The notes below the pieces were generated by a model. The model did not search any database. It was not told the DNA's origin and was given only the letters and a program-made list of their open reading frames with translations. From the NCBI GenBank assembly GCA_031291825.1, contig JARLIG010000009.1:983-64982 (forward strand): 64,000 nt of DNA. The letters run 5' to 3'. This stretch comes from Minisyncoccota bacterium (GTDB taxonomy: Bacteria > Patescibacteriota > Minisyncoccia > Phycocordibacterales > UBA9973). The translations under genes and the position numbers were made by a program. Shown here piece after piece: positions 4,580 to 31,194 of this stretch. How positions within the stretch are numbered: position 1 is the first letter of the stretch; each line of letters starts with the position of its first letter.

Positions 4580-5823
4580 TTATCTCCAGGATGGCTTCCT
4601 TTTTAAAACTGTATTATAAGCTGCTTTTGCAAGCCAAAATGGAGAAACAATACTAAAAACTGGAAAATAGTAAAACATCCCAGCTGAAAGCGCCCATTTC
4701 CCTTCCGCCATCCTGCGTCCGAAAAGCATAGAAAAAAATACTAAAAAGTAGGTGATAATAAATAAGAAAAATAAAGATTGAGTATTGATAAAAAATGGAT
4801 CAAAAACAATCTTCGGATGAATACTAAAACCAACTATTTTATAAACTATATATTTTGAATAGATAAAATTTCCGAAATTATAAAGAATTCGTAGAGAAAG
4901 ATATCCAATTGCGACAACAGAAGCGATACGAGTCGGCAAAGTAAAAACTGAAAAATTTCCATAATCTTTTTTAAAAATCACATCATTGTAATCAATGGTA
5001 TTGTTAAAAAATCCAAAGATCCAACGTACACGCTGACGATAAAGTTTTCGGATGCTTCCCGGTGTATTGGTATACACATAGGCATCATTGCAATGCGCTA
5101 TTTTGTAATTATTTCTCTGCATACGATAAGCTATTTCCATGTCTTCAGTATTGTGGCCATGACGATAGCCACCCAAATCATTGAAAACTTTCTTGCGGAA
5201 AATTGTCAGCGGTCCAGGTGTCACGTCAATTGCGCCCAAGAAATCAAGCATTTTTTTGAAATAGACGCCCATATAGTATTCAGCTCTCTGTGCATTTTGG
5301 ATAAAATTATTATCATTATAAACAGTCACCGAAGGAGCCACTGCCATCACCTCTTTGTCTTTTTCAAAGTAACTCATAATGCGAACCAGAGATTCTCTAT
5401 CAGCAAAGGAGTCCGCATCTAAGCATCCAAAAAATTCAGTTTCCGAATTTTCCAAACCAAAATTAAGAGCGGTAAACTTACCACCATTTTCTTTGTGAAA
5501 AACTTTTATGTTTGAATATTTACTAAAGCGACTAATAACCTTAAAAGTATTATCAGTAGAACCATCATCAATTAAAAAAATAGTAAGTTTATCTTTTGGA
5601 TAATTTAGGTCGAGTAGCGAGCGAACTGTCTTGTAAACAGTCTTCTCTTCATTCCAGCAAGGCACCGTGATGGTAACTTTTGGATAGTGAGCAAGCTTAG
5701 TTTCGCCCTTACGGATAATTATTTTTTTTCTGTTTTCTAGAAAAGTAACGAAAAAAAACACCTGCACATACACAGACAAAAAGATGAATATATATAATAT
5801 GGTGGTTCCTATTAAAGCCATTT
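4580..5823 (-). CDS. Processive family-2 glycosyltransferase (NodC/PgaC/cellulose-synthase-like synthase) with N- and C-terminal TM helices
   Basis: Motifs DDGSTDNT, DAD (DxD), TEDxE and QRVRW (Q/RxxRW), plus flanking TM helices. Start reassigned from 5914 to the Met at 5823, because the upstream 30 codons of the 5914 ORF are a GC-rich terminator hairpin. Confidence 0.75.
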
Positions 5824-8094: not shown

Positions 8095-8190
8095 TTTTAT
8101 TCTCCTCTTGAGGAGTACCCTTTAGGGGGAGGTGGATGAATTTCCACCCCGGCGCAAAAGCGCCACCCCTCAAGAGGGGAATTTTAATCG
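8095..8190. repeat. Array of GC-rich REP-like hairpins: an inverted copy of the 7170-7212 unit (8098-8138) plus a direct copy (8143-8190), immediately 3' of the rpoD stop
   Basis: cctcttgaggagtaccctttagggggaggtgga is the near-reverse-complement of 7170-7210. atttccaccccggcgcaaaagcgccacccctcaagaggggaatttt is a direct copy. There are 5-6 consecutive small hairpins. Confidence 0.6.
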
Positions 8191-9410
8191 AAGTAATTTT
8201 TCAACCTAGAAATCTTTTCGTGCTGGCGAAGCTTTTCGTGTACCTTCGCTTCAATCTGTCGAATACGTTCTCGGGTAACTCCGAACTCTTCCCCTACTCT
8301 CTCTAGGGTATGTTGAATACCATCGAGTAATCCATAACGCATTTCTAAAATTTTTCTTTCTTTAGGATTGAGCTCATCTAAAACTTCCCGAATCTGGTCA
8401 GAAAGAATTCGACGAGAAGATTCTTGGTCTGGACGCAAAATTTTATCGTCTGGAATAAAGTTTTCTAAAGTTGATTTGTCGTCATCATCCCCAACTGGCT
8501 GTTCCAATGAAACAGTTTCTTGGCTAATATTTTCAATCACGTGAATTTTATCAACTGGAATGCCCATTTCGGTGGCAATTTCTTCAGCGAGAGGCTCACG
8601 GCCCAAATCCTGACTAAGTCGGCGATGGGTTTGTTTATATTTAGAAATTGTTTCCACCATGTGCACCGGAATACGAATAGTTCTAGACTGGTCAGCAAGC
8701 GCTCGAGTGATAGATTGACGAATCCACCAAGTCGCATAAGTAGAAAACTTATATCCTTTAGTCCAATCAAATTTTTCAACTGCTTTAAATAAACCTAAAT
8801 TTCCTTCTTGAATCAAATCAAGCAAAGTTAAATTGGCGCTTCGTCCGACATATTTTTTAGCAATGGAAACCACGAGACGCAAGTTTGCTCGAGCTAATAA
8901 GTTTTTTGCTTCCTCATCTCCCTGCTCAATGCGTTTAGCTAAGTCTTTTTCATCACCAGCACGAATAAGCGGATATTGTCCGATTTCTTTCAAATACATT
9001 TGAATGGAATCATGCATCGAACCTTTGTTTAGGTCTTTATCGTTGATTTCGAGGTCTAGATTAAGTAAGTTCCCTCCTTCAAGCACATCAATACCAGCCA
9101 CTGCAAATTTCTCATAAAGTTCGTCCAAAAACAAAATATTGTTTTCAATATCAGGGAAAGTTTTTAAAATCTCGTCATAAGTGATAAAGCCACGCTTCCT
9201 GCCTTTTTCAATAATCATATTCGCCAGACGGTCTAGGTTTTCTGCTTTTTTAGATACTCCGGAAACTTTTTTTACTTTTGCTTTTTTTACAACCTTTTTC
9301 GCCGTTTTTTTCTGTTTTTTAACAGTTTTCTTTTTTAAAACTTTTTTTGACTTAGCTTTCTTAACTATTTTCTTTTTATTTATTTTTTTATTTTTTGTTT
9401 TTTTCTTCAT
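8184..9410 (-). CDS. rpoD: RNA polymerase sigma-70 factor RpoD with a ~55-aa lysine-rich N-terminal tail
   Basis: Regions 1.2-4 are present ([35 protein letters not shown], region-4 [23 protein letters not shown]). It forms a dnaG-rpoD operon. Confidence 0.93.
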
Positions 9411-9416
9411 AAATAT

Positions 9417-11114
9417 TTATTTCTTTATACGACCATTTTTAATATTTTCTTTCTTTTTATTCAATTCATTTATTTCTTGTAAAATTATTTTTCCTATTGT
9501 TTCATCCGAGGTTTGTTTTAATTTTAACATTTTCTTATTTAATTCCTCATTAATATGTTCTTCTTCGAGACTTAGAAACATTTCCTCTACGCTTTTTTCT
9601 AAATCCTCATTGTTTGTGTAAAATACTTCTGCTTCAAATATTAAGTCTTCTCTTATGTTTTCATATTTTTTAGCGGCCTCTCTCAACCTTTCTAAAATCT
9701 TAGAATCTTTTTTCCAAAAAGCAATTCCGATTAATTTACGCTCAATGTAATCTTTTCTATATAATTTATTGACCATATCTCCTGCTTCTTTTATCTCTTC
9801 TTTTTCATATTTTGATTCTTGCGCAATTTTTTTTAAATCATCTTCTAGAGCCACTTGTGGAATTCCAGACATATCACTAATCTTTTTTAAGAAATAAGTT
9901 TTCTCAATTGAACTTTCCAAAGCATCAACAAATGGTAATATTTTTTCCTTTATTTCTCTACCTGCCTTGCGTCCATCGTTAGAGGTTTCTAAGACTTTAT
10001 TCAACAGAAATTCTATGATGTGTTTAGACTCCTTGATTGCTTGTTTCCATGCTTCCGCGCTACTTTTAGAAATTAAATCTGCTGGGTCAACTCCTTCGGG
10101 CATTTTGACGACCTTCACATCCATACCCAAAGACAGGGCTATTTTCCCCGCGCGAATCGTCGCATTAGAGCCGGCCTTGTCCGCGTCAAAAGCTAAAACG
10201 ATATTTGTAGACAAACGACGAATTAAACCTAAATTAGAAACGACATTTTCTTTTGATACGGTTGAATCAGATAAGGCTGTGCCAGAAGTCGCGACCGTAT
10301 TTCGATAACCAGCTTGGTGAGACAGAATCAAATCCATTTGACCTTCAACTAAAATGGAAAAATTATTTTTACGGATAGAATCTTTTGCTTTGTCTATACC
10401 GTAAAGCACCGCATTCTTGCTGAAAATTGGAGTCTCTGGACTATTTAGATACTTGGCAGACTTTCCGTCGTCTACAAAAATTCTTCCAGAAAAAGCAATC
10501 ACTCTGCCACTCGAGTCACTAATCGGAAACATGACCCGTCCACGAAATCTGTCATACATTCCTTTTTCCGCTTTTTTAGCGAGACCAGCCTGCTCTATCT
10601 CTTTGTCAGAAAACCCTTTGTTTTTAAGGTTAGAATAGAGCAAGCGCCAGTCTACGGGTACAAAACCAACTCTGAAATCAGAAATACTTTTTTCGTTTAA
10701 ACCACGAGCTTTAAGATATTTTAGAACCTCTGTATTCCCTTCTAGGTTTTTTTCAAAAAACAAAGTGGCTTCTTCCATCACCTCATATAATTTTTCTTTT
10801 TCACTCTTATTCTCTTTGTCTTTGGGATTGAAATTTTCAAGCTGCACTCCAGCTCGGTCTGCCAACAGTTTCAGCGCGCCCTTAAAATCCAATCCTTCAA
10901 ATTCTTCCACGAAAGTAAAAATATCTCCTCCCGCTCCACAGCCAAAACAATAATAAGTTCCCCGATCTGGCGAAATGAAAAAGCTAGGTGTTTTTTCATT
11001 ATGAAATGGGCATCGCGCCTTGAGGTTTGTGCCTGCCCTATCCAGCTTTATATAAGACGAGACTACTTCTTCGATTGAAAGCCTCTCCTTAATTTTTTGA
11101 ACGGGAGAATTCAT
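9417..11114 (-). CDS. dnaG: DNA primase DnaG
   Basis: Zinc-ribbon CPFHNEKTPSF..YYCFGCGAGGD, a TOPRIM block (EGQMDLI), and its position upstream of rpoD. Confidence 0.9.
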   Translation of the reverse strand: MNSPVQKIKERLSIEEVVSSYIKLDRAGTNLKARCPFHNEKTPSFFISPDRGTYYCFGCGAGGDIFTFVEEFEGLDFKGALKLLADRAGVQLENFNPKDKENKSEKEKLYEVMEEATLFFEKNLEGNTEVLKYLKARGLNEKSISDFRVGFVPVDWRLLYSNLKNKGFSDKEIEQAGLAKKAEKGMYDRFRGRVMFPISDSSGRVIAFSGRIFVDDGKSAKYLNSPETPIFSKNAVLYGIDKAKDSIRKNNFSILVEGQMDLILSHQAGYRNTVATSGTALSDSTVSKENVVSNLGLIRRLSTNIVLAFDADKAGSNATIRAGKIALSLGMDVKVVKMPEGVDPADLISKSSAEAWKQAIKESKHIIEFLLNKVLETSNDGRKAGREIKEKILPFVDALESSIEKTYFLKKISDMSGIPQVALEDDLKKIAQESKYEKEEIKEAGDMVNKLYRKDYIERKLIGIAFWKKDSKILERLREAAKKYENIREDLIFEAEVFYTNNEDLEKSVEEMFLSLEEEHINEELNKKMLKLKQTSDETIGKIILQEINELNKKKENIKNGRIKK

Positions 11115-11161
11115 TGTTATTTTTAAAATTTAAAAGTTTTACGGATTAGTTGTTCTAAAAA

Positions 11162-11746
11162 TTATTTAAGATTCAAAGTAGAGATAATAGCTTCGTCAAT
11201 GGCTTTGGTGGCTGAAGAACTATAACCAAGTTGCATGTCCCACTCTGTAGCTGGACTTCCCAAATCCCCATCGTTCAAAGAAGCTTGTTCTGGAGCAAGA
11301 TCGCAATAATATATTTCAATATTTCCAGTAGTATCAAGTCTCGTCAATGTTTTGCCTGAAATCATAAATGAACTTTTTACTTCGTTAGCACCATAATTCT
11401 TGCCACATTGCTCGTGCACGCTTCCATATTCCACAAAAGCTGAGGATGTTGTAGATCCGCCCGGTGCAGCCATGAAATCCACCAAGATAGGAGCGCCTTT
11501 AATTTCTTCCCAATCGCTTGGATATTTAAAAACACCGTTCCATGTTTTCCATGAAGAGGTATCTATAACTGAAGGAGAAGTTGTCGTATTTGTTTGAGCA
11601 ACCGCTGGCGTCTGCGTCACTGGTTGCGCAACAGACACAGGAGCTTGAACTTTTTTGGACCACAAAAAATATCCGCCAACAGCAACGAGAACAACTAGTA
11701 CTCCAACCAAAACTAAACTCGCAAAACCTTTTTGATTATTCTTCAT
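11162..11746 (-). CDS. Hypothetical exported protein (N-terminal signal anchor)
   Basis: N-terminal TM/signal (ASLVLVGVLVVLVAVGGYFLW), no known motif. Confidence 0.4.
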   Translation of the reverse strand: MKNNQKGFASLVLVGVLVVLVAVGGYFLWSKKVQAPVSVAQPVTQTPAVAQTNTTTSPSVIDTSSWKTWNGVFKYPSDWEEIKGAPILVDFMAAPGGSTTSSAFVEYGSVHEQCGKNYGANEVKSSFMISGKTLTRLDTTGNIEIYYCDLAPEQASLNDGDLGSPATEWDMQLGYSSSATKAIDEAIISTLNLK

Positions 11747-11797
11747 ATTATTTTGACTAAATTAATTAATAATAATCCTATAAATTTATTGTTTTGC

Positions 11798-11826
11798 TTG
11801 ACATTGATCTTGCGTAAGATTATACT
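11798..11826 (+). promoter_or_regulatory. Near-consensus sigma-70 promoter (TTGACA-17 bp-TATACT) on the plus strand
   Basis: ttgaca at 11798-11803, a 17-nt spacer, tatact at 11821-11826. It points toward the hairpin/terminator at 11853-11885. Confidence 0.4.
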
Positions 11827-11852
11827 TATTCGGTAAATGGCTTCGGCCTCCG

Positions 11853-11885
11853 AGAAACCCCCGCAAGGGGGTTTCGTCTTTTATG
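11853..11885. terminator. Bidirectional intrinsic-terminator-like hairpin (gaaaccccc-GCAA-gggggtttc) with flanking A/T tracts, downstream of the MazF-like gene
   Basis: Perfect 9-bp stem with a GNRA-type loop and U-tracts on both strands. It is preceded by a ggc-ttcg-gcc mini-hairpin. Confidence 0.5.
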
Positions 11886-12267
11886 GCAAGATATTGTGAA
11901 TTTTCTTAATCATTACACTAAAATCACCTTCTTTTATCATACCAATTTTTCTGGAGAGCCTTTTACTATCCAAAAGTCTTATTTGCGATAAAATACCAGC
12001 ATAAGTTTTTCCACTAAGTTCATATTGGTGATAATAATCATTATCTTTTTTTGAACTAGTTAACGGGATTGCTAAAAATATGTTGTTGTTAAATTTTCTA
12101 ATAACTAGAATAGGTCTTTCAAAGAGTTCATTTTTTCCATCTTCTTCATAGCCAATATTTTTACCTAGTGAGCAAAACCATATTTCTCTTTCATGAAAAA
12201 AGATGCCTGATTTCTTGGTTGATAAATCTTTCTTTAATTTATTCCAATCATCATATTCTTTTTCCAT
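11881..12267 (-). CDS. MazF/PemK/NdoA-family endoribonuclease toxin homologue (CcdB/MazF fold); no antitoxin gene is visible
   Basis: REIWFCSLGKNIGYEEDG...RPILVIRKFNNN..LAIPLTSS...QIRLLDSKRLSRKIGMI aligns with the PemK (GEIW..L.P..G.E..G.RPvLIV....N....V.PvTS) and NdoA (QIRTIDKQRLTDKI) signatures. It sits 6 nt after the rpoC stop. Confidence 0.7.
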   Translation of the reverse strand: MEKEYDDWNKLKKDLSTKKSGIFFHEREIWFCSLGKNIGYEEDGKNELFERPILVIRKFNNNIFLAIPLTSSKKDNDYYHQYELSGKTYAGILSQIRLLDSKRLSRKIGMIKEGDFSVMIKKIHNILP

Positions 12268-12273
12268 AAATTT

Positions 12274-15200
12274 TTATTCTTCGACTGTTTCGTCAGCGAC
12301 AAGATTCTTTTTAAAACCAGTTCCAACTGGAATCAATCGTCCAATAATGACATTTTCTTTTAGACCTCGGAGACTGTCTACGCCGCCTTTGATAGCATTT
12401 TCAATCAAGACGCGGTTGGTGTTTTGGAATGAGGCAGCTGACAACCAACTCTTGGTGCGAAGAGAAACTTCTGTAATACCAAGCACTACGGTTTCTGCTT
12501 TAGCCGTTTTGCCTTCAATCTTTTCAACTCTCATGTTTTCTTCGATGAAAGCTGTATTTTCCACAATATCACCAGTTGAGAAGTTAGTTTCTCCAGCTTC
12601 TTTAATCTTGCGGCGAGAAAACATTTGGCGAATAATAATTTCTGTATGTTTTCTAGAGATTGAAGCGCTTTGTAATTCATAAACTTTATTTATTTCGTTG
12701 ATGATGTATTCTTCAACTATTTCTTTACTGCCTAATCTGAAGAGTTCTGCAATATCAGCTGAACCGTCAGTCAAAAGCTGGCCTTTTTTAACTTGGTCCC
12801 CCGCTTTAACGATTGGTGTTCGGCGGAAAGCGACAATATATTCCATTTCGTTCTTCTTGCCATCTTCTTTGCTGTCGGATAAGACTTTAATGATTTTTTC
12901 TTTTGCATCTTTAGCAGTAATCGAAATTACTTCACCATCGGTCTCGGAAATAATTGCTGGGTTTTTCGGAATGCGTCTTTCAAAAATTTCTTCGACACGA
13001 GGCAAACCGGTCGTGATATCTGTTCCTGCGACACCTCCAGAGTGGAAAGTACGAAGTGTGAGCTGTGTTCCTGGCTCACCGATAGCTTGCGCTGCGATGA
13101 TACCAACAGCCTCACCTTCTGCTACCAAACGATTTCTTCCCAAGTCTAGACCGTAACATTGGACACAAAGACCATGAACAGTTTTACAAGTAAGTGGAGA
13201 ACGGACAAACACTTCAGTAAATCCAGCTCCCTCAATGTTGTAAGCTTCTTCTTTGGTAACCAAGAATCCTTTTTTGTAAACCACCTTTCCATCTTTGTCT
13301 TTCAAATCAGCAGCCAAGACACGTCCACGAATATTTTTAGAAAGTGGAATTTCAATTCCAGAAATATTTTCTTTACTAACCATCTTACCTTCTTTTGTTC
13401 CACAATCTTCTTCGGTAATCACAACGTCTTGCGCCACATCCACTAGACGGCGGGTCAAATATCCAGCCTTTGCGGTATTGAGAGCCGTATCCGATGCACC
13501 CTTACGAGCACCGTGGGTAATGGTGAAATATTCAATCGGAGACAATCCTTCGTAGTAAGAAGGGATGATTGGGAATTCCAAAATTTTACCTTGGTTGTTT
13601 TGAATCAAACCGATCATTCCAACAAGCTGAGTAAGTGAACCCATGTTTCCTCTAGCCTTCGAAGTGAATAAGTCATAAGCAGAACCATTTTTATCAAGAG
13701 TAGCTGGTAAAACTTTTTCCAAATTTTTCTTGGTTTGAGTCCAAACCTCAATAATCTTTTGATACTTTTCTTCTTCAGATAACAAACCATCATTCCATTG
13801 AGAAAGAATTTCTTCTTCGAGCTTTTTTCCTTCCGCAATTATTCTAGGCTTTTCAGGAGAAAGAGAAATGTTGTCGAGCCCCCAAGTAGTACCAGACACT
13901 GTTGAGTACTTAAAACCGAAAGCTTTAATCTTATCCAAGATAGCTGGAGTATTATCCACGCCACATTGAATAATAAATTCGTCGAGAAGCGCGGAGAGTC
14001 GGTCATGGGTCATTTCATCGTTGATGTAAGAAAATTCATTAGGTAAAATACTATTGAAGAGCAGACGTCCGACGGAAGTTTCAAAAATTCCTTCGTTGAA
14101 TTTTCGATACTTATGCGTATCAGTAGCCAAAACTTTTATTTTCGCACGCAAGGAAACTACTCCGTAATCATACGCAGTGACAGCAGTATTTGGACTAGAG
14201 AAATATTTACCTTCACCTAGCTCCCCATTTACTCCTTTAGTCATCCAGTAACTTCCAAGCACCATATCCATACGAGGATTCACGATTGGGTCACCATTTT
14301 GTGGCTTCAATAAATTTTTATTTGCCGCCATTAATTCTTTTGCTTCCCATTGAGCTTCTTCAAGCAAAGGAACATAAACAGCCATCTGGTCTCCATCGAA
14401 GTCAGCGTTGAAAGCCTGACAAACAAGTGGATGCACTTGAATAGCATTGCCTTCAATCAAAATAGGGTTAAAGGCTTGGATACCCAGACGGTGCAAAGTA
14501 GGAGCACGGTTCAACAATACATACTTTCCTTTAATAACTTCTTCAAGCATCGCCCAAACTTCACTAGTGCGTTCTTCGATGAGCTTGTTCGCGCCACGAA
14601 TATTGAATGCAAGTTCCGCTTGTAAAATTTTGGAAATAACGAATGGTCGGAAAAGCTCCAATGCCATATGTTTTGGTAATCCACATTGGTTTAAGTTTAA
14701 TTGTGGACCGACAACGATAACCGAGCGACCAGAATAGTCCACACGTTTACCAAGTAAGTTTTGTCGAAACAAACCTTGCTTTGATTTCAAATTGTCGGAA
14801 AGAGATTTTAGAGGACGTTTTTGAGACTGACTCATTGCAGCAGAATCGTTTTGCTTGGCGATAGAGTTGTCAATCAAGGCATCGACTGCTTCTTGAATAA
14901 TTCTTTTTTCATTACGCAAAATAACATCCGGAGCATTGATTTCTTTCAATTTTTTCAGACGATTATTTCTGTTTATCACGCGACGGTAAAGGTCGTTCAA
15001 GTCGGAAGTTGCATGACGTCCACCATCAAGCGCCACCATCGGACGAAGCACTGGAGGAATAACTGGAATAACGGTCAAGAACATCCATTCTGGGCGAATC
15101 TGCGCATAATTCATTGCGCGAATCAAAGAAAGTCTTTTTTGTAATTTCTCTTTTTCCGCCATACTTGCCTTCTCTAGCATCTTCTCAGTCAGAGTTTTCA

Positions 15201-15888
15201 ACTTATTCAAATCCAAATTTTTAAAAATAGAATAAATCGCTTCTGCACCGATATTTGCTTCAAAACAAGTTCCATACTTTAGAGAATAATGATGGAAAGA
15301 AATTTCATTTAAAACTTTTCCTTCGTAAATTTCTCCAATTTCTTTTTTCGTAATAGAAAGCAGACTCTTTAGCTTCTCACGCGTTTCATCGTCCGCAGAA
15401 TTTTTTAATTTAGTTTTGTATTCTTTATCTAACCCAGAGAGAATAGTTTCTTTTTCTTCCTCAAAGACTTTGGTGATGATGTATCCAGCGAAATAAATAA
15501 CCTTTTCCAAATCGGAAACGGAAATATTGAGCAATATACTCATACGAGAAGGCACACCACGCAAAAACCAAATATGCGATACTGGTGTAGATAGTTCGAT
15601 GTGTCCCATACGTTCACGGCGAACAATCGAGCGAGTGACTTCCACTCCACATTTTTCACAGATAATATCCTTATAACGAATTCGGCGGTACTTTCCACAG
15701 TAACATTCATAGTCCTTTTCTGGACCGAATATTTTCTCGTCGAACAATCCCCCACGTTCAGATCTGCCAGTTCGATAATTGATAGTTTCTGGTTTAGTAA
15801 CTTCTCCATAAGACCATTCCTTGATTTGCTCTGGAGATGCAAGTCTTAGCGCAATGCGATCAAATTCAGTTGTGTTTAATGTTTTCAT
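12274..15888 (-). CDS. rpoC: DNA-directed RNA polymerase subunit beta' RpoC
   Basis: NADFDGDQMAV catalytic motif, zinc-binding CxxC clusters, 1204 aa. Confidence 0.97.
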   Translation of the reverse strand: MKTLNTTEFDRIALRLASPEQIKEWSYGEVTKPETINYRTGRSERGGLFDEKIFGPEKDYECYCGKYRRIRYKDIICEKCGVEVTRSIVRRERMGHIELSTPVSHIWFLRGVPSRMSILLNISVSDLEKVIYFAGYIITKVFEEEKETILSGLDKEYKTKLKNSADDETREKLKSLLSITKKEIGEIYEGKVLNEISFHHYSLKYGTCFEANIGAEAIYSIFKNLDLNKLKTLTEKMLEKASMAEKEKLQKRLSLIRAMNYAQIRPEWMFLTVIPVIPPVLRPMVALDGGRHATSDLNDLYRRVINRNNRLKKLKEINAPDVILRNEKRIIQEAVDALIDNSIAKQNDSAAMSQSQKRPLKSLSDNLKSKQGLFRQNLLGKRVDYSGRSVIVVGPQLNLNQCGLPKHMALELFRPFVISKILQAELAFNIRGANKLIEERTSEVWAMLEEVIKGKYVLLNRAPTLHRLGIQAFNPILIEGNAIQVHPLVCQAFNADFDGDQMAVYVPLLEEAQWEAKELMAANKNLLKPQNGDPIVNPRMDMVLGSYWMTKGVNGELGEGKYFSSPNTAVTAYDYGVVSLRAKIKVLATDTHKYRKFNEGIFETSVGRLLFNSILPNEFSYINDEMTHDRLSALLDEFIIQCGVDNTPAILDKIKAFGFKYSTVSGTTWGLDNISLSPEKPRIIAEGKKLEEEILSQWNDGLLSEEEKYQKIIEVWTQTKKNLEKVLPATLDKNGSAYDLFTSKARGNMGSLTQLVGMIGLIQNNQGKILEFPIIPSYYEGLSPIEYFTITHGARKGASDTALNTAKAGYLTRRLVDVAQDVVITEEDCGTKEGKMVSKENISGIEIPLSKNIRGRVLAADLKDKDGKVVYKKGFLVTKEEAYNIEGAGFTEVFVRSPLTCKTVHGLCVQCYGLDLGRNRLVAEGEAVGIIAAQAIGEPGTQLTLRTFHSGGVAGTDITTGLPRVEEIFERRIPKNPAIISETDGEVISITAKDAKEKIIKVLSDSKEDGKKNEMEYIVAFRRTPIVKAGDQVKKGQLLTDGSADIAELFRLGSKEIVEEYIINEINKVYELQSASISRKHTEIIIRQMFSRRKIKEAGETNFSTGDIVENTAFIEENMRVEKIEGKTAKAETVVLGITEVSLRTKSWLSAASFQNTNRVLIENAIKGGVDSLRGLKENVIIGRLIPVGTGFKKNLVADETVEE

Positions 15889-15906: not shown

Positions 15907-18900
15907 TTACTTGTCTCCAGTTTTCTTTAAGTCGACATCAAGCGCCAAACCTCTTAGATAATTTAACAAGACGTTAAATGATGCAGGAGCGTTCGGAGCG
16001 CGAATGACTTCGTTCTTGATAATAGAATCAAAGGTTGCAGATCGACCAAGAATATCGTCAGATTTAATTGTTAACATTTCGCGGAGTGTATAAGCTGCGC
16101 CATAACCTTCGAGTGCCCAGACTTCCATTTCTCCAAATCTCTGTCCACCGCCTTGAGCTTTTCCGCCGAGCGGTTGCTGAGTTATAAGTGAGTAAGGACC
16201 TATTGAACGCATGTGAATCTTGTCTTCTACCATGTGATGCAATTTGAGCATATACATATAACCGACAGCTATGTCTTGTTGAAATGGCTCCCCGGTGCGT
16301 CCATCAAAAAGTTTTAGTTTTCCATTTTCTGGCAATCCAGCTTTTTTTAATTCTTCTCTAATTTCATCATGCTTGGCTCCTAAGAATGGAGGGACGATAG
16401 CTTGATAACCAAGAGAATTTGCGGCCATACCTAAATGCAATTCCAAAATCTGTCCCAAGTTCATACGAGAAGGAACACCGAGCGGTGAAAGAATAATATC
16501 AACTGGCGTACCATCTGCAGTGTAAGGCATATCTTCTTCTGGAAGAATCATCGAGATAACTCCTTTGTTTCCGTGTCGACCGGAAAGTTTATCGCCAACA
16601 GAAATATTTCTAATTTGCGCGACTTCAATCACAATTTTTTTGATAATCCCCGCTTCAAGCGCATGACCCAAGTCTCGAGAGAAAATCTTTACACCGATAA
16701 TACGTCCACGTTTGCCGTGTTCCATACGAAGAGACGTATCTTTTACATCACGAGCTTTTTCCGCGAAGATAGAGCGAAGGAGTCTTTCTTCTGGAGTTAA
16801 TTCTGTTTCGCCTTTTGGTGTAATTTTACCAACCAAAATATCATTTTCTCGAACTTCTGCTCCAATACGAACGACTCCATCTTCATCCAAATCTTTTAAT
16901 TTAAGTTCACCGACGTTTGGAATATCGCGAGTCGTAATTTCGGGACCAAGCTTGGTATCACGAACTATACAAGTAAATTCTTCCACATAAACAGACGTGA
17001 ATTTACTCTTTTTGACTAAACGTTCAGAAATAATAATCGCGTCTTCGTAAGTGGAACCATTCCAAGACAAGAAGGCCACAAAAATATTTTGTCCGATTGA
17101 AATTTGTCCGTTGACAGTACTGGAAGTATCTGCCAAGACTTCACCTTTCTTTACTTTATCACCAACATTCACGAGTGGACGCTGGTGGAAAACAGCAAAG
17201 TTGTTATTTCTCAAGAAATTAACCAAGGTATATGTATGTTCATTTTTTCCTTTAACAATTATTTTCTTTGCATCTACATAAGAGACCACTCCTTCTTCCA
17301 AAGAAAGAATTAGTCTGCCTCCATCTCTAGCTGCTGATTCTTCAATTCCGGTTGCGACCAATGGCATTTCGGGAATAATACAAGGTACTGCCTGCTTCTG
17401 CATGTTACTGCCCATGAGCGCACGGTTTGCGTTGTTGTGTTCCAAGAAAGGAATCATCGAAGTAGCCACAGAAAAAGCTTGGTTTGGAGCGACGTCAATA
17501 AAATCAACTTGGTTTTTGGAAACTCGTCCAGGCTCTGTTTTGATGCGAGCTTCTACCTTATCTTCGGTAATATTTCCATCTTCATCGTAAGGAATACCAG
17601 CATGAGCGATGTTGTACTTTTCTTCTTCAAGCGCATTTAAATAAACTATCTCGCCAGTAATTTTTCCATTTTTAACTTTTGCATAAGGAGTTTCAATAAT
17701 TCCAAAATCATTTATCTTGGCGTAAGTGGAAAGGTGTAAAATGAGTCCAATGTTTGGACCTTCTGGAGTATGAATCGGACAAACTCGGCCGTAGTGCGAA
17801 GGATGCACATCTCGCACTTCCAATCCGGCTCTTTCGCGAGTGAGCCCCCCAGGACCAAGTGCAGAAAGCAAACGAATGTGTTCGGTTTCCGCCAACACAT
17901 TTTCTTGGTTCATGAATTGCGAAAGTTGGTTGGTGGTAAAAAATTCTTTGATACGAGCTTGAAGTGGTCGCTGATTGATTATTTGAATTGGCATCGCGGT
18001 ATCAACATCAATAATCGACATACGGTCTTGAATGTTTCTCTTGATTTGCATCATACCGGTGCGAATTTTTTGCTGAAGAATTTCTCCGACAAAACGCACG
18101 CGTCTTTGACCCAAGTGGTCAATATCGTCTGCCTTGGCATCAGAAGTATTATTTAAAACAATAATATGTGAGATAACAGCCACTAAATCTTCTTTAGAAA
18201 TAGTGCGGCGCGCCATCTCAGCTTCACCCATATCCTTATCAAAACGCTGATTGAATCTGAATCGTCCAACAGGAGAAAGGTCATAACGCTCAGCCGTAAA
18301 TAAGGAATTTATAAATTCTTTAGCATTATCGGCAGTCGCCATATCACCATCTCGTAGACGCTTGTAAATTTCAATATAAGCTTCATTCAAACTCTTGATT
18401 CCCTCTTTTGGAAAAGTCGCTTTAATAGTTTCTTCAGCTTTTGCATCTTTAGAAAATGCCTTCAAAATCATTTCATTCGTCTCATAACCTAAAGCGCGCA
18501 AGAGAGCCGTTGCCGGAAATTTTCGCTTCTTGTCTATACGAATATAAATTCCACCGTCTGCTTCTGATTCTATTTCAATCCAAACTCCACGAGCTGGAAT
18601 AATTTTTGCACCAAAATATTTATTGCCTTTACTTTCTGATTCTGTAAAGAAAACTCCGAAACTTCGAGCTAGCTGTGGCACAATAACTCGCTCCACTCCG
18701 TTGATAATGAAAGTTCCGTGCGTTGTCATGAGCGGAAGGTCCGACATGAAAATTTCTTGTTCTTTCACTGTCCCTAAAATTTTATTCGTCAATTTTACAC
18801 GCGCTTTTAATAAACCCTGATATGAGAGTTTGTTGATTTTAGAATTATTTTCGTCAGTTTTAGATTCACTCAAAGAAAATGAAGTGAATTCTAATTGAAA

Positions 18901-19101
18901 TTTTTTGCCAGAGTAATCGATAATCGGAGAAAATTCTTTAAAGACTTCTCCTATACCATTTTCTACCAACCATTTGAAACTTTTTACTTGAGCTTCAATT
19001 AAATTTGGAAACGGGGTAAGAGGTTTTTTATATCTGTTAAAATACTTCTTCGGACGCTTGGTTACTTCTTGCATATTGATTGAGTCCTTAGAAAACAACA
19101 A
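15907..19101 (-). CDS. rpoB: DNA-directed RNA polymerase subunit beta RpoB
   Basis: Full-length conserved beta-subunit blocks (GPNIGLI, NMQKQAVP, GEMEVWALEGYGAAY). Confidence 0.97.
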   Translation of the reverse strand: MLFSKDSINMQEVTKRPKKYFNRYKKPLTPFPNLIEAQVKSFKWLVENGIGEVFKEFSPIIDYSGKKFQLEFTSFSLSESKTDENNSKINKLSYQGLLKARVKLTNKILGTVKEQEIFMSDLPLMTTHGTFIINGVERVIVPQLARSFGVFFTESESKGNKYFGAKIIPARGVWIEIESEADGGIYIRIDKKRKFPATALLRALGYETNEMILKAFSKDAKAEETIKATFPKEGIKSLNEAYIEIYKRLRDGDMATADNAKEFINSLFTAERYDLSPVGRFRFNQRFDKDMGEAEMARRTISKEDLVAVISHIIVLNNTSDAKADDIDHLGQRRVRFVGEILQQKIRTGMMQIKRNIQDRMSIIDVDTAMPIQIINQRPLQARIKEFFTTNQLSQFMNQENVLAETEHIRLLSALGPGGLTRERAGLEVRDVHPSHYGRVCPIHTPEGPNIGLILHLSTYAKINDFGIIETPYAKVKNGKITGEIVYLNALEEEKYNIAHAGIPYDEDGNITEDKVEARIKTEPGRVSKNQVDFIDVAPNQAFSVATSMIPFLEHNNANRALMGSNMQKQAVPCIIPEMPLVATGIEESAARDGGRLILSLEEGVVSYVDAKKIIVKGKNEHTYTLVNFLRNNNFAVFHQRPLVNVGDKVKKGEVLADTSSTVNGQISIGQNIFVAFLSWNGSTYEDAIIISERLVKKSKFTSVYVEEFTCIVRDTKLGPEITTRDIPNVGELKLKDLDEDGVVRIGAEVRENDILVGKITPKGETELTPEERLLRSIFAEKARDVKDTSLRMEHGKRGRIIGVKIFSRDLGHALEAGIIKKIVIEVAQIRNISVGDKLSGRHGNKGVISMILPEEDMPYTADGTPVDIILSPLGVPSRMNLGQILELHLGMAANSLGYQAIVPPFLGAKHDEIREELKKAGLPENGKLKLFDGRTGEPFQQDIAVGYMYMLKLHHMVEDKIHMRSIGPYSLITQQPLGGKAQGGGQRFGEMEVWALEGYGAAYTLREMLTIKSDDILGRSATFDSIIKNEVIRAPNAPASFNVLLNYLRGLALDVDLKKTGDK

Positions 19102-20211: not shown

Positions 20212-20559
20212 TTAAATTCCTTTCAAGTCTTCCATCGCTTGGTCAACAGTCTTCAAGGTCGGAGCGCTCATATGAGGAGTGGAACTATGTCCTTCTGGTC
20301 TCATACTGCCTGCTGGTTCATTGATTTTTAGATTAACGCGAGCGTTATTCTTCATGCCAATGATGCGGAGCAAGGTGCGGATGGCTTTCGCGGTGTTACC
20401 CATTCGGCCAATAATCTTGCCCATGTCGGCAGGATTTACAGTCAGAGTGATGAGTACGCCCATTTCGTCGACAGTGCGTTCGATTTTTACATCGTTTGGA
20501 TTGTCTACAAGAGCTTTCACTACGTATTCCAAAAATATCTGGTCAGCTTCGTTGTTCAT
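20212..20559 (-). CDS. KH-domain RNA-binding protein (YlqC/UPF0109 family)
   Basis: GKIIGRMGNTAKAIRTLL KH GxxG motif; position between rpsP and trmD as in many bacteria. Confidence 0.8.
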   Translation of the reverse strand: MNNEADQIFLEYVVKALVDNPNDVKIERTVDEMGVLITLTVNPADMGKIIGRMGNTAKAIRTLLRIIGMKNNARVNLKINEPAGSMRPEGHSSTPHMSAPTLKTVDQAMEDLKGI

Positions 20560-20641
20560 AGTATTGAGAGAATTTATTTTTTAATTTAAAACTTTCTTTG
20601 CAGTGTTACGACCCGGTACTGCTTTACTGAATTATACAAAA

Positions 20642-20950
20642 TTATTTTTTCACTTTCAACTCTTTTCGCTTCTGGGTGGGATGTTTCTTTGGCAAAACAT
20701 TTACCTTCTTACCAACGATAACCTTGTCGTGCACTAAAAAATTATGCATCGTACCAGAGCACTGTGCACCCTGGCTAATCCAATATTTTATTCTTTCAGC
20801 ATCTAAATTTTTCTCTCCAGCCTTTGGATTATAAGTTCCTAAAATTTCTAAAAATTTTCCGCTCTTGGTACTATTTTTTGAATCGGTCAAAACAGCCCGG
20901 AACGAAGGGTCATTCTTTCTGCCTATTCTCTGAAGTCTTATTTTTAACAT
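20642..20950 (-). CDS. rpsP: 30S ribosomal protein S16
   Basis: MLKIRLQRIGRKNDPSFRAVLTDS..GTYNP signature. Confidence 0.9.
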   Translation of the reverse strand: MLKIRLQRIGRKNDPSFRAVLTDSKNSTKSGKFLEILGTYNPKAGEKNLDAERIKYWISQGAQCSGTMHNFLVHDKVIVGKKVNVLPKKHPTQKRKELKVKK

Positions 20951-29964: not shown

Positions 29965-30885
29965 CTATTTTTTGGTGATAATTTCAATTGCCTTAGCAAT
30001 CAACGGGATTATGTCATTATAAATTCGCAGTTCTGGAATTGCTGAAAGCGGAAACCATCTTGCGCCATCCAACCCACCAGACTTTTCCAATTCAAGTTCT
30101 TTGTAATCGCTTTTAGCTAAAAAGTAAACCACCTTTTTCAAACTCTTTCCCTTTTCTGGATGAGTCGCCACATATTCATTATCTCCAAGTTTTTCTTCTA
30201 ATTGAATATCTAATCCTATTTCTTTTTTAATTATTTTAATCGTTCCAACTTGTACATCCTCACCTGCTTCAAGCTTGCCCTTAGACAGAGTCCAATACCC
30301 AAAAACATCATGCACTAAGGCAAATAAAAATTCGTCGTCTTTTTTGGCATATACTAACGCGCCACTTAAAGTTTCCACTGGTAGCTGAGTAATATCCAGC
30401 GGTTCATCATGTTTCTTTTTTTTGCTGATTTGTTCTTTGCCAGGTTCGCCTATTTCTTTGTAGACGGCACCTAAAACACCATTTACAAATTTACCAGAAT
30501 TTTCTCCGCCGAAAGTTTTTGCCAGTTCGATTGATTCATTGATAGCAACCTTCGGAGGAACTTCTTTGCGGTCACCAAAAAGTAGTTCTGCTAAACCGAT
30601 ACGCAAGATATTTCTATCAATAATAGAAATTTTATCAATCGGCCAATCTGGCGCGGCTTTTTCGATGATTTCATCAATTACCACGCGCTTCTTTAGAACT
30701 TGGTCAATCAGAGAAAAGACAAAAGCATCATCTTCAAAACCAGGAGCAAATTCTTTTAAATTTCTTTTTAAAACGTTTTTTATCTCCTCATTTGATAGGT
30801 CGGCGCTTTTTTTATTATCAGGAGAAAAATCCAATTCAAAAAGGGTCTGAAGAACTATTGATCTGGAAAGGTGCCTATTTGACAT
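29965..30885 (-). CDS. nusB: NusB antitermination-factor domain fused to a C-terminal (degenerate) Nudix hydrolase domain
   Basis: N-terminal NusB core (RSIVLQTLFELDF). C-terminal ~150 aa with a Nudix-like box GKLEAGEDVQVGTIKIIKKEIGL (the REUxEE catalytic residues are mostly replaced). Confidence 0.65.
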   Translation of the reverse strand: MSNRHLSRSIVLQTLFELDFSPDNKKSADLSNEEIKNVLKRNLKEFAPGFEDDAFVFSLIDQVLKKRVVIDEIIEKAAPDWPIDKISIIDRNILRIGLAELLFGDRKEVPPKVAINESIELAKTFGGENSGKFVNGVLGAVYKEIGEPGKEQISKKKKHDEPLDITQLPVETLSGALVYAKKDDEFLFALVHDVFGYWTLSKGKLEAGEDVQVGTIKIIKKEIGLDIQLEEKLGDNEYVATHPEKGKSLKKVVYFLAKSDYKELELEKSGGLDGARWFPLSAIPELRIYNDIIPLIAKAIEIITKK

Positions 30886-30890
30886 TGTTT

Positions 30891-30960
30891 TAGGCGTTAG
30901 GCGTTAGGCGTTAGGCTTTAGCTTTTTATACTCGCTAGTGCCTAGGGCCTAGGGCCTAAT
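30891..30960. repeat. Short tandem heptamer repeats (taggcgt x4 and cctaggg x2) forming an imperfect inverted pair, directly upstream of the nusB start
   Basis: Seen directly: taggcgttaggcgttaggcgttaggctt ... gcctagggcctagggcctaa. The two blocks are approximately reverse-complementary. Confidence 0.6.
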
Positions 30961-30969
30961 CGCTATTTA

Positions 30970-31194
30970 CTAACTCTGCGCTACTTTTGCCTTGGCTTTC
31001 TTTTGCTTCTTTTCCACTTTTTTGATTAAATCGATAACCTTTTTACCACGGTAAAATCCACAAGCGGAACAGACAGTGTGTCGTCGTTTTAAAGCTTGGC
31101 AATTTTCGCACTTCGTAAAACTCGTACTCTCCAAAGCATGGTGAGAACGGCGGTTCTTCGTATGCGATTTTGTATGTCTCATTCGTACTACCAT
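30970..31194 (-). CDS. rpmF: 50S ribosomal protein L32 (with a C-terminal Lys-rich extension)
   Basis: RMRHTKSHTKNRRSHHAL...C..C....RHTVCSACGFYRGKKV zinc-ribbon L32 pattern. Confidence 0.8.
   Translation of the reverse strand: MVVRMRHTKSHTKNRRSHHALESTSFTKCENCQALKRRHTVCSACGFYRGKKVIDLIKKVEKKQKKAKAKVAQS

Follow-up and report, generated by a model that had tools for sequence, protein, structure and literature searches.

Probably the nearest described relative of the locus reported here is the CjrA/CjpT pair of the Campylobacter plasmid pVir. The locus lies in a stretch of 64,000 nucleotides (nt) from Minisyncoccota bacterium (assembly GCA_031291825.1, contig JARLIG010000009.1, positions 983 to 64,982 of the forward strand; hereafter the window), and comprises a gene for a MazF/PemK-family toxin and, convergent with it, a gene for a small RNA (sRNA). 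For pVir, passages in PMC7826846 and PMC10470494 that cite Shen et al. (2016, Mol Microbiol, pmid 27291507) describe a validated RNA antitoxin, cjrA, with a protein toxin, cjpT, and class the pair as type I. An sRNA of 77 nt, CJpv3, has been detected by Northern blot on the pVir minus strand, running from 31119 to 31043 (Dugar et al. 2013, PMC3656092, Table S12), and the other two sRNAs of this plasmid are both longer than 100 nt (PMC3656092). In type III systems the antitoxin RNA consists of tandem repeats that lie upstream of the toxin gene and share its strand, a terminator standing between the two (PMC8860590). Toxin genes that appear to have no partner at all are also common: in the big toxin families they make up more than half of the total (PMC2701414), and the reason for this has long been a puzzle.

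An earlier note on this DNA had placed the window toxin among these solo genes, as a MazF-like toxin without an antitoxin that had become attached to the rpoB-rpoC operon. That description does not hold. On the sequence evidence, the toxin and a conserved convergent sRNA form a compact two-gene cassette, and the sRNA is likely to be the antitoxin of the MazF-type toxin. Control by a convergent mini-transcript, one of several alternatives that the note had offered, is thus the one that the evidence supports.

The toxin

The toxin gene occupies 11881..12267 on the minus strand and encodes 128 amino acids (aa). Its assignment to the MazF/PemK family is borne out. The motifs quoted in the earlier note, REIW..SLGKNIGYEEDGKNELFERPILVI, AIPLTS and QIRLLDSKRLSRKIG, are present in the protein, and the Pfam profile PemK_toxin (PF02452) matches aa 27-126 over profile positions 3-108 of 109, with E=1.7e-8 and 35.1 bits against a gathering cutoff of 23.1. 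The PADLOC library of defence systems gave no match to the toxin. When a profile built from 58 toxin homologs was searched against the PDB, the best match was B. subtilis EndoA/YdcE (E 6e-7), with S. aureus MazF and E. coli MazF also matched among the solved structures. An AlphaFold2 (AF2) model of the toxin, with a predicted local distance difference test score (pLDDT) of 83.9, shows the SH3-like barrel of the MazF/Kid fold; the top Foldseek matches to this model were all MazF structures (S. aureus, B. subtilis, M. tuberculosis and E. coli) at probability 1.00, with target-normalised template modelling (TM) scores of up to 0.82.

The catalytic residues of MazF, which we take from established structural work to be R29 and T52 in E. 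coli and R25 and T48 in B. subtilis, have clear counterparts in the window protein. Alignment with E. coli MazF by hhalign places R51-P52 on R29-P30 and P68-L69-T70 on P50-C51-T52; among the 58 homologs R51 is invariant and position 70 is either T or S. The toxin is, on profile and model, a MazF-family member in which both catalytic residues are kept. Taken together, the profile match, the fold, the catalytic residues and the invariance of R51 indicate that it is very probably an active endoribonuclease rather than a decayed paralog. Ahead of the MazF domain the protein carries an N-terminal extension of ∼25 aa that falls outside the Pfam model and includes a predicted helix, H5-17. Within it W8 and K12 are invariant in the 58 homologs and provide a hallmark of the toxin family.

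A conserved convergent RNA gene

Facing the toxin gene on the plus strand is a strong predicted promoter (11798..11826) with TTGACA, a 17-nt spacer and TATACT, making 11/12 matches in the promoter scan. It is followed at 11833..11883 (plus strand) by a structured sRNA of ∼51 nt, the putative RNA antitoxin, which the covariance model R1 recognises with 65.1 bits (E 2e-15) as its single match in the 64-kb window. The layout of this RNA is a 5' tail, GUAAAU; hairpin 1 (11839..11848, plus strand), GGC-UUCG-GCC, as placed by the RNAalifold consensus; a linker, UCCGA; hairpin 2 (11854..11875, plus strand), which is GAAACCCCC-GCAA-GGGGGUUUC followed by GUCUUUU; and a U-tract that overlaps the toxin stop codon at 11881-11883. 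Hairpin 2 is identified by the terminator scan as an intrinsic terminator for the plus strand only, and no terminator on the toxin strand was found within 300 nt in the window. The minimum free energy (MFE) of the window sRNA is -22.9 kcal/mol (z -3.55). The single-sequence MFE fold, in which UCGG pairs with CCGA and hairpin 1 is lost, was set aside because this pairing is absent in other loci and covariation backs the two-hairpin fold. We also rejected the idea that the sRNA is a peptide gene: the window has an ATG-started frame of 20 codons, but the frame shifts among loci, and variants with AAACGG or AAAUUGG have no ATG.

Is this RNA peculiar to the window? Homologous loci were examined for the best 80 of at least 586 matches to the toxin, and the statements on the RNA partner that follow refer to these best-matching ∼80 loci (handles beginning with L below). 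When the 150 nt downstream of the toxin were compared in all of them, the same convergent cassette was seen nearly everywhere, across phyla of the Candidate Phyla Radiation (CPR), Proteobacteria and Bacteroidota. Most non-redundant loci share a promoter with a -35 box TTGAC(A/T), a spacer of 16-17 nt and a -10 box TATACT. The motif ACAAAUGG (GUAAAUGG in the window) lies exactly 8 nt past the -10 box and is followed by a small hairpin, a short conserved linker, a second hairpin and a tail that reaches or overlaps the toxin stop codon, the whole distance from -10 box to stop codon being 49-70 nt across loci. The sRNA start sites are predicted from this promoter geometry, with which the mapped start in the pVir case agrees.

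The RNAs were divided by simple sequence rules into classes A, B and C, class A being represented by covariance model R1 and classes B and C by model R2. At E<1e-4, R1 gave 38 matches and R2 gave 29 when 790 kb were searched on both strands; every one lay on the strand opposite the toxin and abutted its 3' end, with none elsewhere in the 790 kb. Together these matches cover 66 of the 82 sources outside the Campylobacterota, and in nearly all of the rest a related proteobacterial or Saccharibacteria variant could be recognised by eye. No Rfam family matched at gathering thresholds, and a permissive scan gave nothing below E 0.2.

Covariation supports both the fold and its conservation. RNAalifold, applied to a MAFFT alignment of 28 class A sequences, recovered both hairpins, with compensatory double changes in 11/13 pairs; these include all 3 core pairs of hairpin 1, and hairpin 2 shows compensatory changes in 8/9 pairs. 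In this structure-independent alignment 93.7% of pairing cells are filled by pairs, compared with 72.7% after shuffling, a value that 0/500 shuffles reach. The covariation score is 0.584 against 0.207 for shuffled alignments (0/500), and slid-register controls gave 0.07-0.17. The loops of the hairpins vary freely (UUCG, ACAU, GUAA, AAUA). The 5' tail YAAAU and the nucleotides AAA, GG and CGA..G are invariant from CPR to Proteobacteria.

Where toxin genes occur as tandem paralogs, each has its own sRNA. Such tandem toxins, with a convergent sRNA after each, are found in L037 (4386-5437), L062 and L072; L037 has one sRNA of class A and one of class B, which suggests that each toxin is specific for its cognate RNA. 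In L081 a weaker second sRNA-like element (5485-5530; R2 E 0.006) lies ∼90 nt past the first with no adjoining toxin, and may be an orphan copy or a remnant.

Comparison with described systems

Relatives of the toxin are found on plasmids of Campylobacter, Helicobacter and Nitratiruptor and in the CJIE4 prophages of Campylobacter, all of them annotated without a partner. In tblastn, the pVir protein WP_011117588 shows 36.9% identity to the window toxin over aa 4-103 (78% of query; E 5e-14), and the phage family PHROG 9567 covers toxin aa 2-124 (E 7e-19). The pVir homolog of C. jejuni 81-176 is encoded at 30634..31038 on the plus strand. CJpv3, with a promoter TGATATAAT, is convergent with it and ends 4 nt past its stop codon. 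The TADB entry for cjrA is 78 nt long, against 77 nt for CJpv3 and more than 100 nt for the other pVir sRNAs; CjrA is therefore probably CJpv3, and CjpT the MazF-like pVir0047, an identification made from position and length only. The literature we found links CjrA/CjpT neither to the MazF family nor to a conserved RNA family outside Campylobacter.

If these identities are correct, the resemblance between the two systems extends to both components. The pVir toxin homolog shares the N-terminal F-x-x-W..K helix, and in CJpv3 an A/U-rich single strand precedes hairpin 1 and hairpin 2, with a tail beyond them that reaches the stop codon. The pVir RNA differs, however, in having ∼30 extra nt at its 5' end and in being detected by neither R1 nor R2; in the CPR version a sequence-invariant motif forms the 5' terminus. 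The copy on the Nitratiruptor plasmid is even closer to the family in layout than is pVir. In the Campylobacter prophage CJIE4-3 (L093), a toxin homolog at 2483-2917 sits between the genes for the large terminase subunit and the portal, with no annotated partner, and a RelE/StbE toxin gene is located 2 kb downstream of it.

The cassette shares features with several other kinds of toxin–antitoxin (TA) system and matches none of them fully. Like the type III systems (ToxIN, AbiQ/antiQ, CptIN, TenpIN) it combines an endoribonuclease toxin with a tightly linked structured RNA, here the candidate inhibitor, that has A-rich single-stranded tails. In contrast to those systems, the RNA is a single unit with its own promoter, on the opposite strand and downstream of the toxin, and it has no evident pseudoknot; no tandem repeats are present in 11100-13000, where rpoC is directly upstream of the toxin, and the sole Pfam match of the toxin is PemK_toxin, not ToxN, AbiQ, CptN or TenpN. 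The type I systems whose RNAs overlap the toxin 3' end or share its terminator (TxpA/RatA, BsrG/SR4 and the par locus with Fst and RNA II) are similar in their convergent genes with a 3' overlap, in the terminator usable on both strands that is found in class B, and in their strong sRNA promoter. Their toxins are membrane peptides, however, whereas this one is a soluble MazF-fold RNase of 128 aa, and the sRNA here is much shorter (∼50 nt), is conserved in sequence across phyla and has no complementarity to the toxin translation start.

With the type II systems MazEF, PemIK and Kis-Kid the toxin shares its fold, its Pfam family, the catalytic Arg and Thr and a dimer-type architecture, although it has the extra N-terminal helix. 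No MazE or PemI gene accompanies it, either here or in the ∼80 homologous loci, and an RNA gene is found instead; the locus falls outside the definition of type II because it has no protein antitoxin. MazF-mx of Myxococcus xanthus is likewise a MazF homolog with no adjacent antitoxin gene (PMC2701414). It differs in being a single domesticated copy under a host transcription factor, whereas the present family is mobile, often multi-copy and provided with an RNA partner.

Possible mode of action of the RNA

How might so short an RNA restrain the toxin? The reading that we favour, slightly, over antisense action at the 3' end, and hold tentatively, is that the sRNA neutralises the toxin by binding the protein directly, in a type III-like manner. 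The sRNA would be made from its near-consensus convergent promoter, end at the toxin stop codon and act as the partner of the MazF-fold endoribonuclease. Its single-stranded A-rich 5' tail would occupy the substrate groove of the toxin. Affinity would come from the hairpins and the invariant purines beside them, perhaps aided by the N-terminal helix specific to the family. A strong constitutive promoter would keep the RNA in excess over the toxin, and the RNase would be set free if the cassette were lost or diluted or if transcription were blocked. Blower and colleagues are said to have found in 2011 that RNA-inhibited type III toxins share the MazF/Kid fold.

Several features favour direct binding. 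The 5' module is invariant in sequence across phyla, which antisense pairing in cis does not need. It also has no complementarity to the 5' region of the toxin. In RNAduplex comparisons of the sRNA 5' module with the toxin start region the mean z was +0.3, and cognate pairs (-12.31 kcal/mol) were no different from non-cognate pairs (-12.37 kcal/mol), which rules out pairing to the toxin start of the kind seen in par/Fst. The organisation of the toxin mRNA also bears on this point. A Shine-Dalgarno (SD)-like 4-mer is found upstream of the toxin in only 3/67 loci; a -10 box with at least 5/6 matches ends 4-10 nt before the ATG in 22/67 loci, compared with 6.3% of control windows, and a box with at least 4/6 matches and a TG extension is present in 23/67. 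Given the rarity of SD sequences and the closeness of the -10 box to the ATG, the typical toxin mRNA of the family appears to be leaderless, which would leave no 5' untranslated region (UTR) to target. Extended -10 boxes (TGnTAtAAT) 5-9 nt before the toxin ATG occur, for example, in L031, L035, L037, L042, L058 and L085.

The strongest rival keeps the same cassette and makes the sRNA a type I-like cis-antisense RNA that pairs with the toxin transcript at its 3' end or in its 3' UTR, over the shared terminator or the read-through region; cleavage by RNase III, or loss of a protective 3' hairpin, would then lower the amounts of toxin mRNA and protein. RatA/TxpA and SR4/BsrG of B. subtilis, and par of Enterococcus with its bidirectional terminator, act as 3' antisense systems. 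We regard this rival as possible, and as somewhat less probable than direct binding. In its favour is the convergent layout, with the sRNA gene abutting or overlapping the toxin 3' end in every locus. Among class A loci, including the window, a toxin-strand terminator before the sRNA gene was found in 0/31, and the whole sequence complementary to the sRNA should therefore be part of the rpoBC-toxin transcript. In class B the actual terminator of the sRNA is a hairpin formed by the last codons of the toxin and its stop codon, giving an overlap of ∼25-30 nt with the coding sequence. The pVir precedent points the same way, cjrA (78 nt in TADB; the 77-nt CJpv3 behind the MazF-like pVir gene) being termed a type I antisense antitoxin in the passages cited above.

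Other features of the loci fit the antisense rival poorly. The invariance of the 5' tail and junction nucleotides from CPR to Proteobacteria is not something it requires, and the freely varying hairpin loops leave no conserved kissing loop. The toxin is a 128-aa soluble RNase rather than a small hydrophobic peptide, and the sRNA does not pair to the toxin 5' end. Moreover, a terminator-like hairpin is also present at the stop codon on the toxin strand in 16/28 class B loci, and the toxin mRNA of these loci should stop short of the conserved 5' module; with the terminator shared, the two transcripts would overlap only there, and the module would be left without a cis-antisense target. In class B loci, for example L025 (5370-5400), L034, L036 and L062, the last ∼7 codons of the toxin and its stop (..KALLP*) form a GC hairpin between an A-run and a U-run. 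Because this bidirectional terminator is built from coding sequence, the protein C-terminus and the RNA terminator constrain each other.

Direct binding has difficulties of its own. The canonical architecture of type III is absent: the toxin gene is not preceded by tandem RNA repeats, processing sites are lacking, and the toxin matches PemK rather than any ToxN, AbiQ or CptN family. CjrA/CjpT, the probable experimental relative, is called type I, that is antisense, in the passages of PMC7826846 and PMC10470494 referred to above, and the A-rich motif of the pVir RNA is internal rather than at the 5' end. In class A, with its 0/31 loci that have a toxin-strand terminator, antisense overlap appears geometrically unavoidable. 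The two routes may indeed operate together. Should direct binding prove correct, a large and hitherto unrecognised class of MazF/PemK endoribonucleases inhibited by a two-hairpin sRNA of ∼50 nt, a substrate or product mimic that is transcribed singly and convergently from a promoter of its own, would represent a new type III-like architecture, a proposal that we put forward with a little more caution still.

Genomic context and distribution

The toxin gene follows rpoC (12274..15888, minus strand), which is itself preceded by rpoB (15907..19101, minus strand), all on the same strand according to the list of open reading frames (ORFs). From the rpoC stop codon to the toxin ATG there is a spacer of 6 nt (12268..12273, minus strand), the distance that the earlier note had stated. 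It contains no Shine-Dalgarno sequence and no good -10 box, the best -10-like hexamer having 4/6 matches. The same order is kept in close Nomurabacteria relatives, L001-L004, L011 and L013, and in L001-L004 the syntenic genes were seen to encode RNA polymerase Rpb1 domains. In its own lineage the window toxin probably shares a transcript with rpoB-rpoC: having lost the leaderless promoter of other loci, the gene would be read through from rpoBC, and translation would probably re-initiate 6 nt past the rpoC stop codon.

This arrangement could be taken to mean, as the earlier note suggested, that the toxin is a solitary MazF-like RNase that has been domesticated, perhaps for RNA processing, in its place within the rpoBC operon. 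The hairpin downstream would then be no more than the operon terminator. The 6-nt spacing, the lack of a promoter or SD of its own and the preserved synteny are compatible with this idea, and the solitary MazF of Myxococcus does have a host function (PMC2701414). The wider distribution makes it improbable. The protein search gave homologs in 404 clusters and the genome scan found them in at least 586 species representatives, the majority in CPR/Patescibacteria (Nomurabacteria, Wolfebacteria, Yanofskybacteria, Kaiserbacteria, Saccharibacteria and others) and a minority in Proteobacteria and Bacteroidota. The order rpoB-rpoC-toxin is confined to the close relatives named above, with at least 85% identity; L012 (84% identity), L014 (71%) and homologs of ∼50% identity occupy unrelated contexts, where many have a leaderless promoter of their own. 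One homolog lies between rpsP/KH and trmD and others amid hypothetical genes. Some contigs carry two toxin copies and some genomes several, a multi-copy occurrence typical of selfish modules, and in each of its contexts the toxin is accompanied by the sRNA cassette. Finally, the window hairpin terminates transcription on the opposite strand, not on the rpoBC strand. We conclude from these distributions that the rpoC adjacency is a recent lineage-specific insertion, and reflects neither domestication nor a functional tie to RNA polymerase.

Control in trans, by a protein antitoxin encoded elsewhere in the genome, has been proposed to explain many unpaired toxin genes (PMC2701414), and the 64 kb of the window are only part of this genome. 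We consider it very unlikely here. None of the small ORFs that overlap or flank the toxin (31, 33 and 30 aa) is conserved, and an antitoxin-type Pfam domain was found in 0/37 small ORFs across the window; the absence of a neighbouring gene of the MazE/AbrB or ribbon-helix-helix (RHH) type is thus confirmed, as it is for PHD and similar types. When every ORF of 35 aa or more that lies no further than 600 bp from the toxin was clustered over the ∼80 loci, from very different genomes, no recurrent protein neighbour emerged, the sole large clusters being alternative-frame artefacts inside the toxin coding sequence. This clustering, with the Pfam scan, rules out a hidden protein antitoxin beside the toxin, where a dedicated conserved RNA gene stands instead. 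Least likely of all is that the N-terminal helix (EYDDW..K), for all that it lies outside the Pfam model with its invariant W8 and K12 and predicted helical structure, is a built-in antitoxin that auto-inhibits the RNase by mimicking the acidic, Trp-containing C-terminal tail of MazE, since the extension is basic overall in most homologs and the conserved sRNA gene would be left unexplained.

Beyond the cassette, the next gene (11162..11746, minus strand) encodes a hypothetical protein of 194 aa with a hydrophobic N-terminal segment, in keeping with its earlier description as secreted. It is followed by dnaG (9417-11114, minus strand) and rpoD (8184-9410, minus strand), so that one co-oriented block extends from rpoB and rpoC over the toxin cassette to dnaG and rpoD; any transcript continuing from rpoBC into dnaG-rpoD would have to pass the strong convergent sRNA promoter. 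The gene between cassette and dnaG differs among close relatives. In L001-L004 the slot filled in the window by the 194-aa protein holds one of 210 aa (L001 6463-7095) with a weak ART-PolyVal match, and in L012 and L014 the next gene is an ORF of 574 aa, grouped by clustering with the ORFs that hold the dnaG position elsewhere, in a comparison that also included L011. The junction between toxin cassette and dnaG is a rearrangement hot spot. Genes for ribosomal protein S16 and a KhpA-type KH-domain protein are also present in the window according to the Pfam scan, probably among the small ORFs at 20212-20950 (minus strand), and L008, a further CPR genome, has the toxin cassette inserted directly behind the S16/KH gene pair, upstream of trmD. 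Another small ORF of the window matches DUF559 and REase_MTES_1575, an endonuclease-like domain, with E 3.5e-21.

Implications

The idea of an RNA antitoxin is itself established. As far as we could find, a conserved RNA family paired with a MazF clade across phyla is undescribed both in the literature and in Rfam; literature searches gave nothing decisive on the details of cjpT/cjrA or on an RNA motif associated with pemK or mazF. The present analysis supplies such a family, defined by sequence and structure. It also links a fold known from type II toxins to RNA antitoxins of type I or type III, and the NCBI label 'type II toxin-antitoxin system PemK/MazF family toxin' probably gives the wrong type for this clade.

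To our knowledge, almost nothing is known of sRNAs or TA biology in CPR bacteria, to which a system seen on a single Campylobacter plasmid would now extend. A whole MazF subfamily, with at least 586 species representatives, would on this evidence not be solo; its partner would be a tiny RNA gene that is invisible to protein-based annotation.

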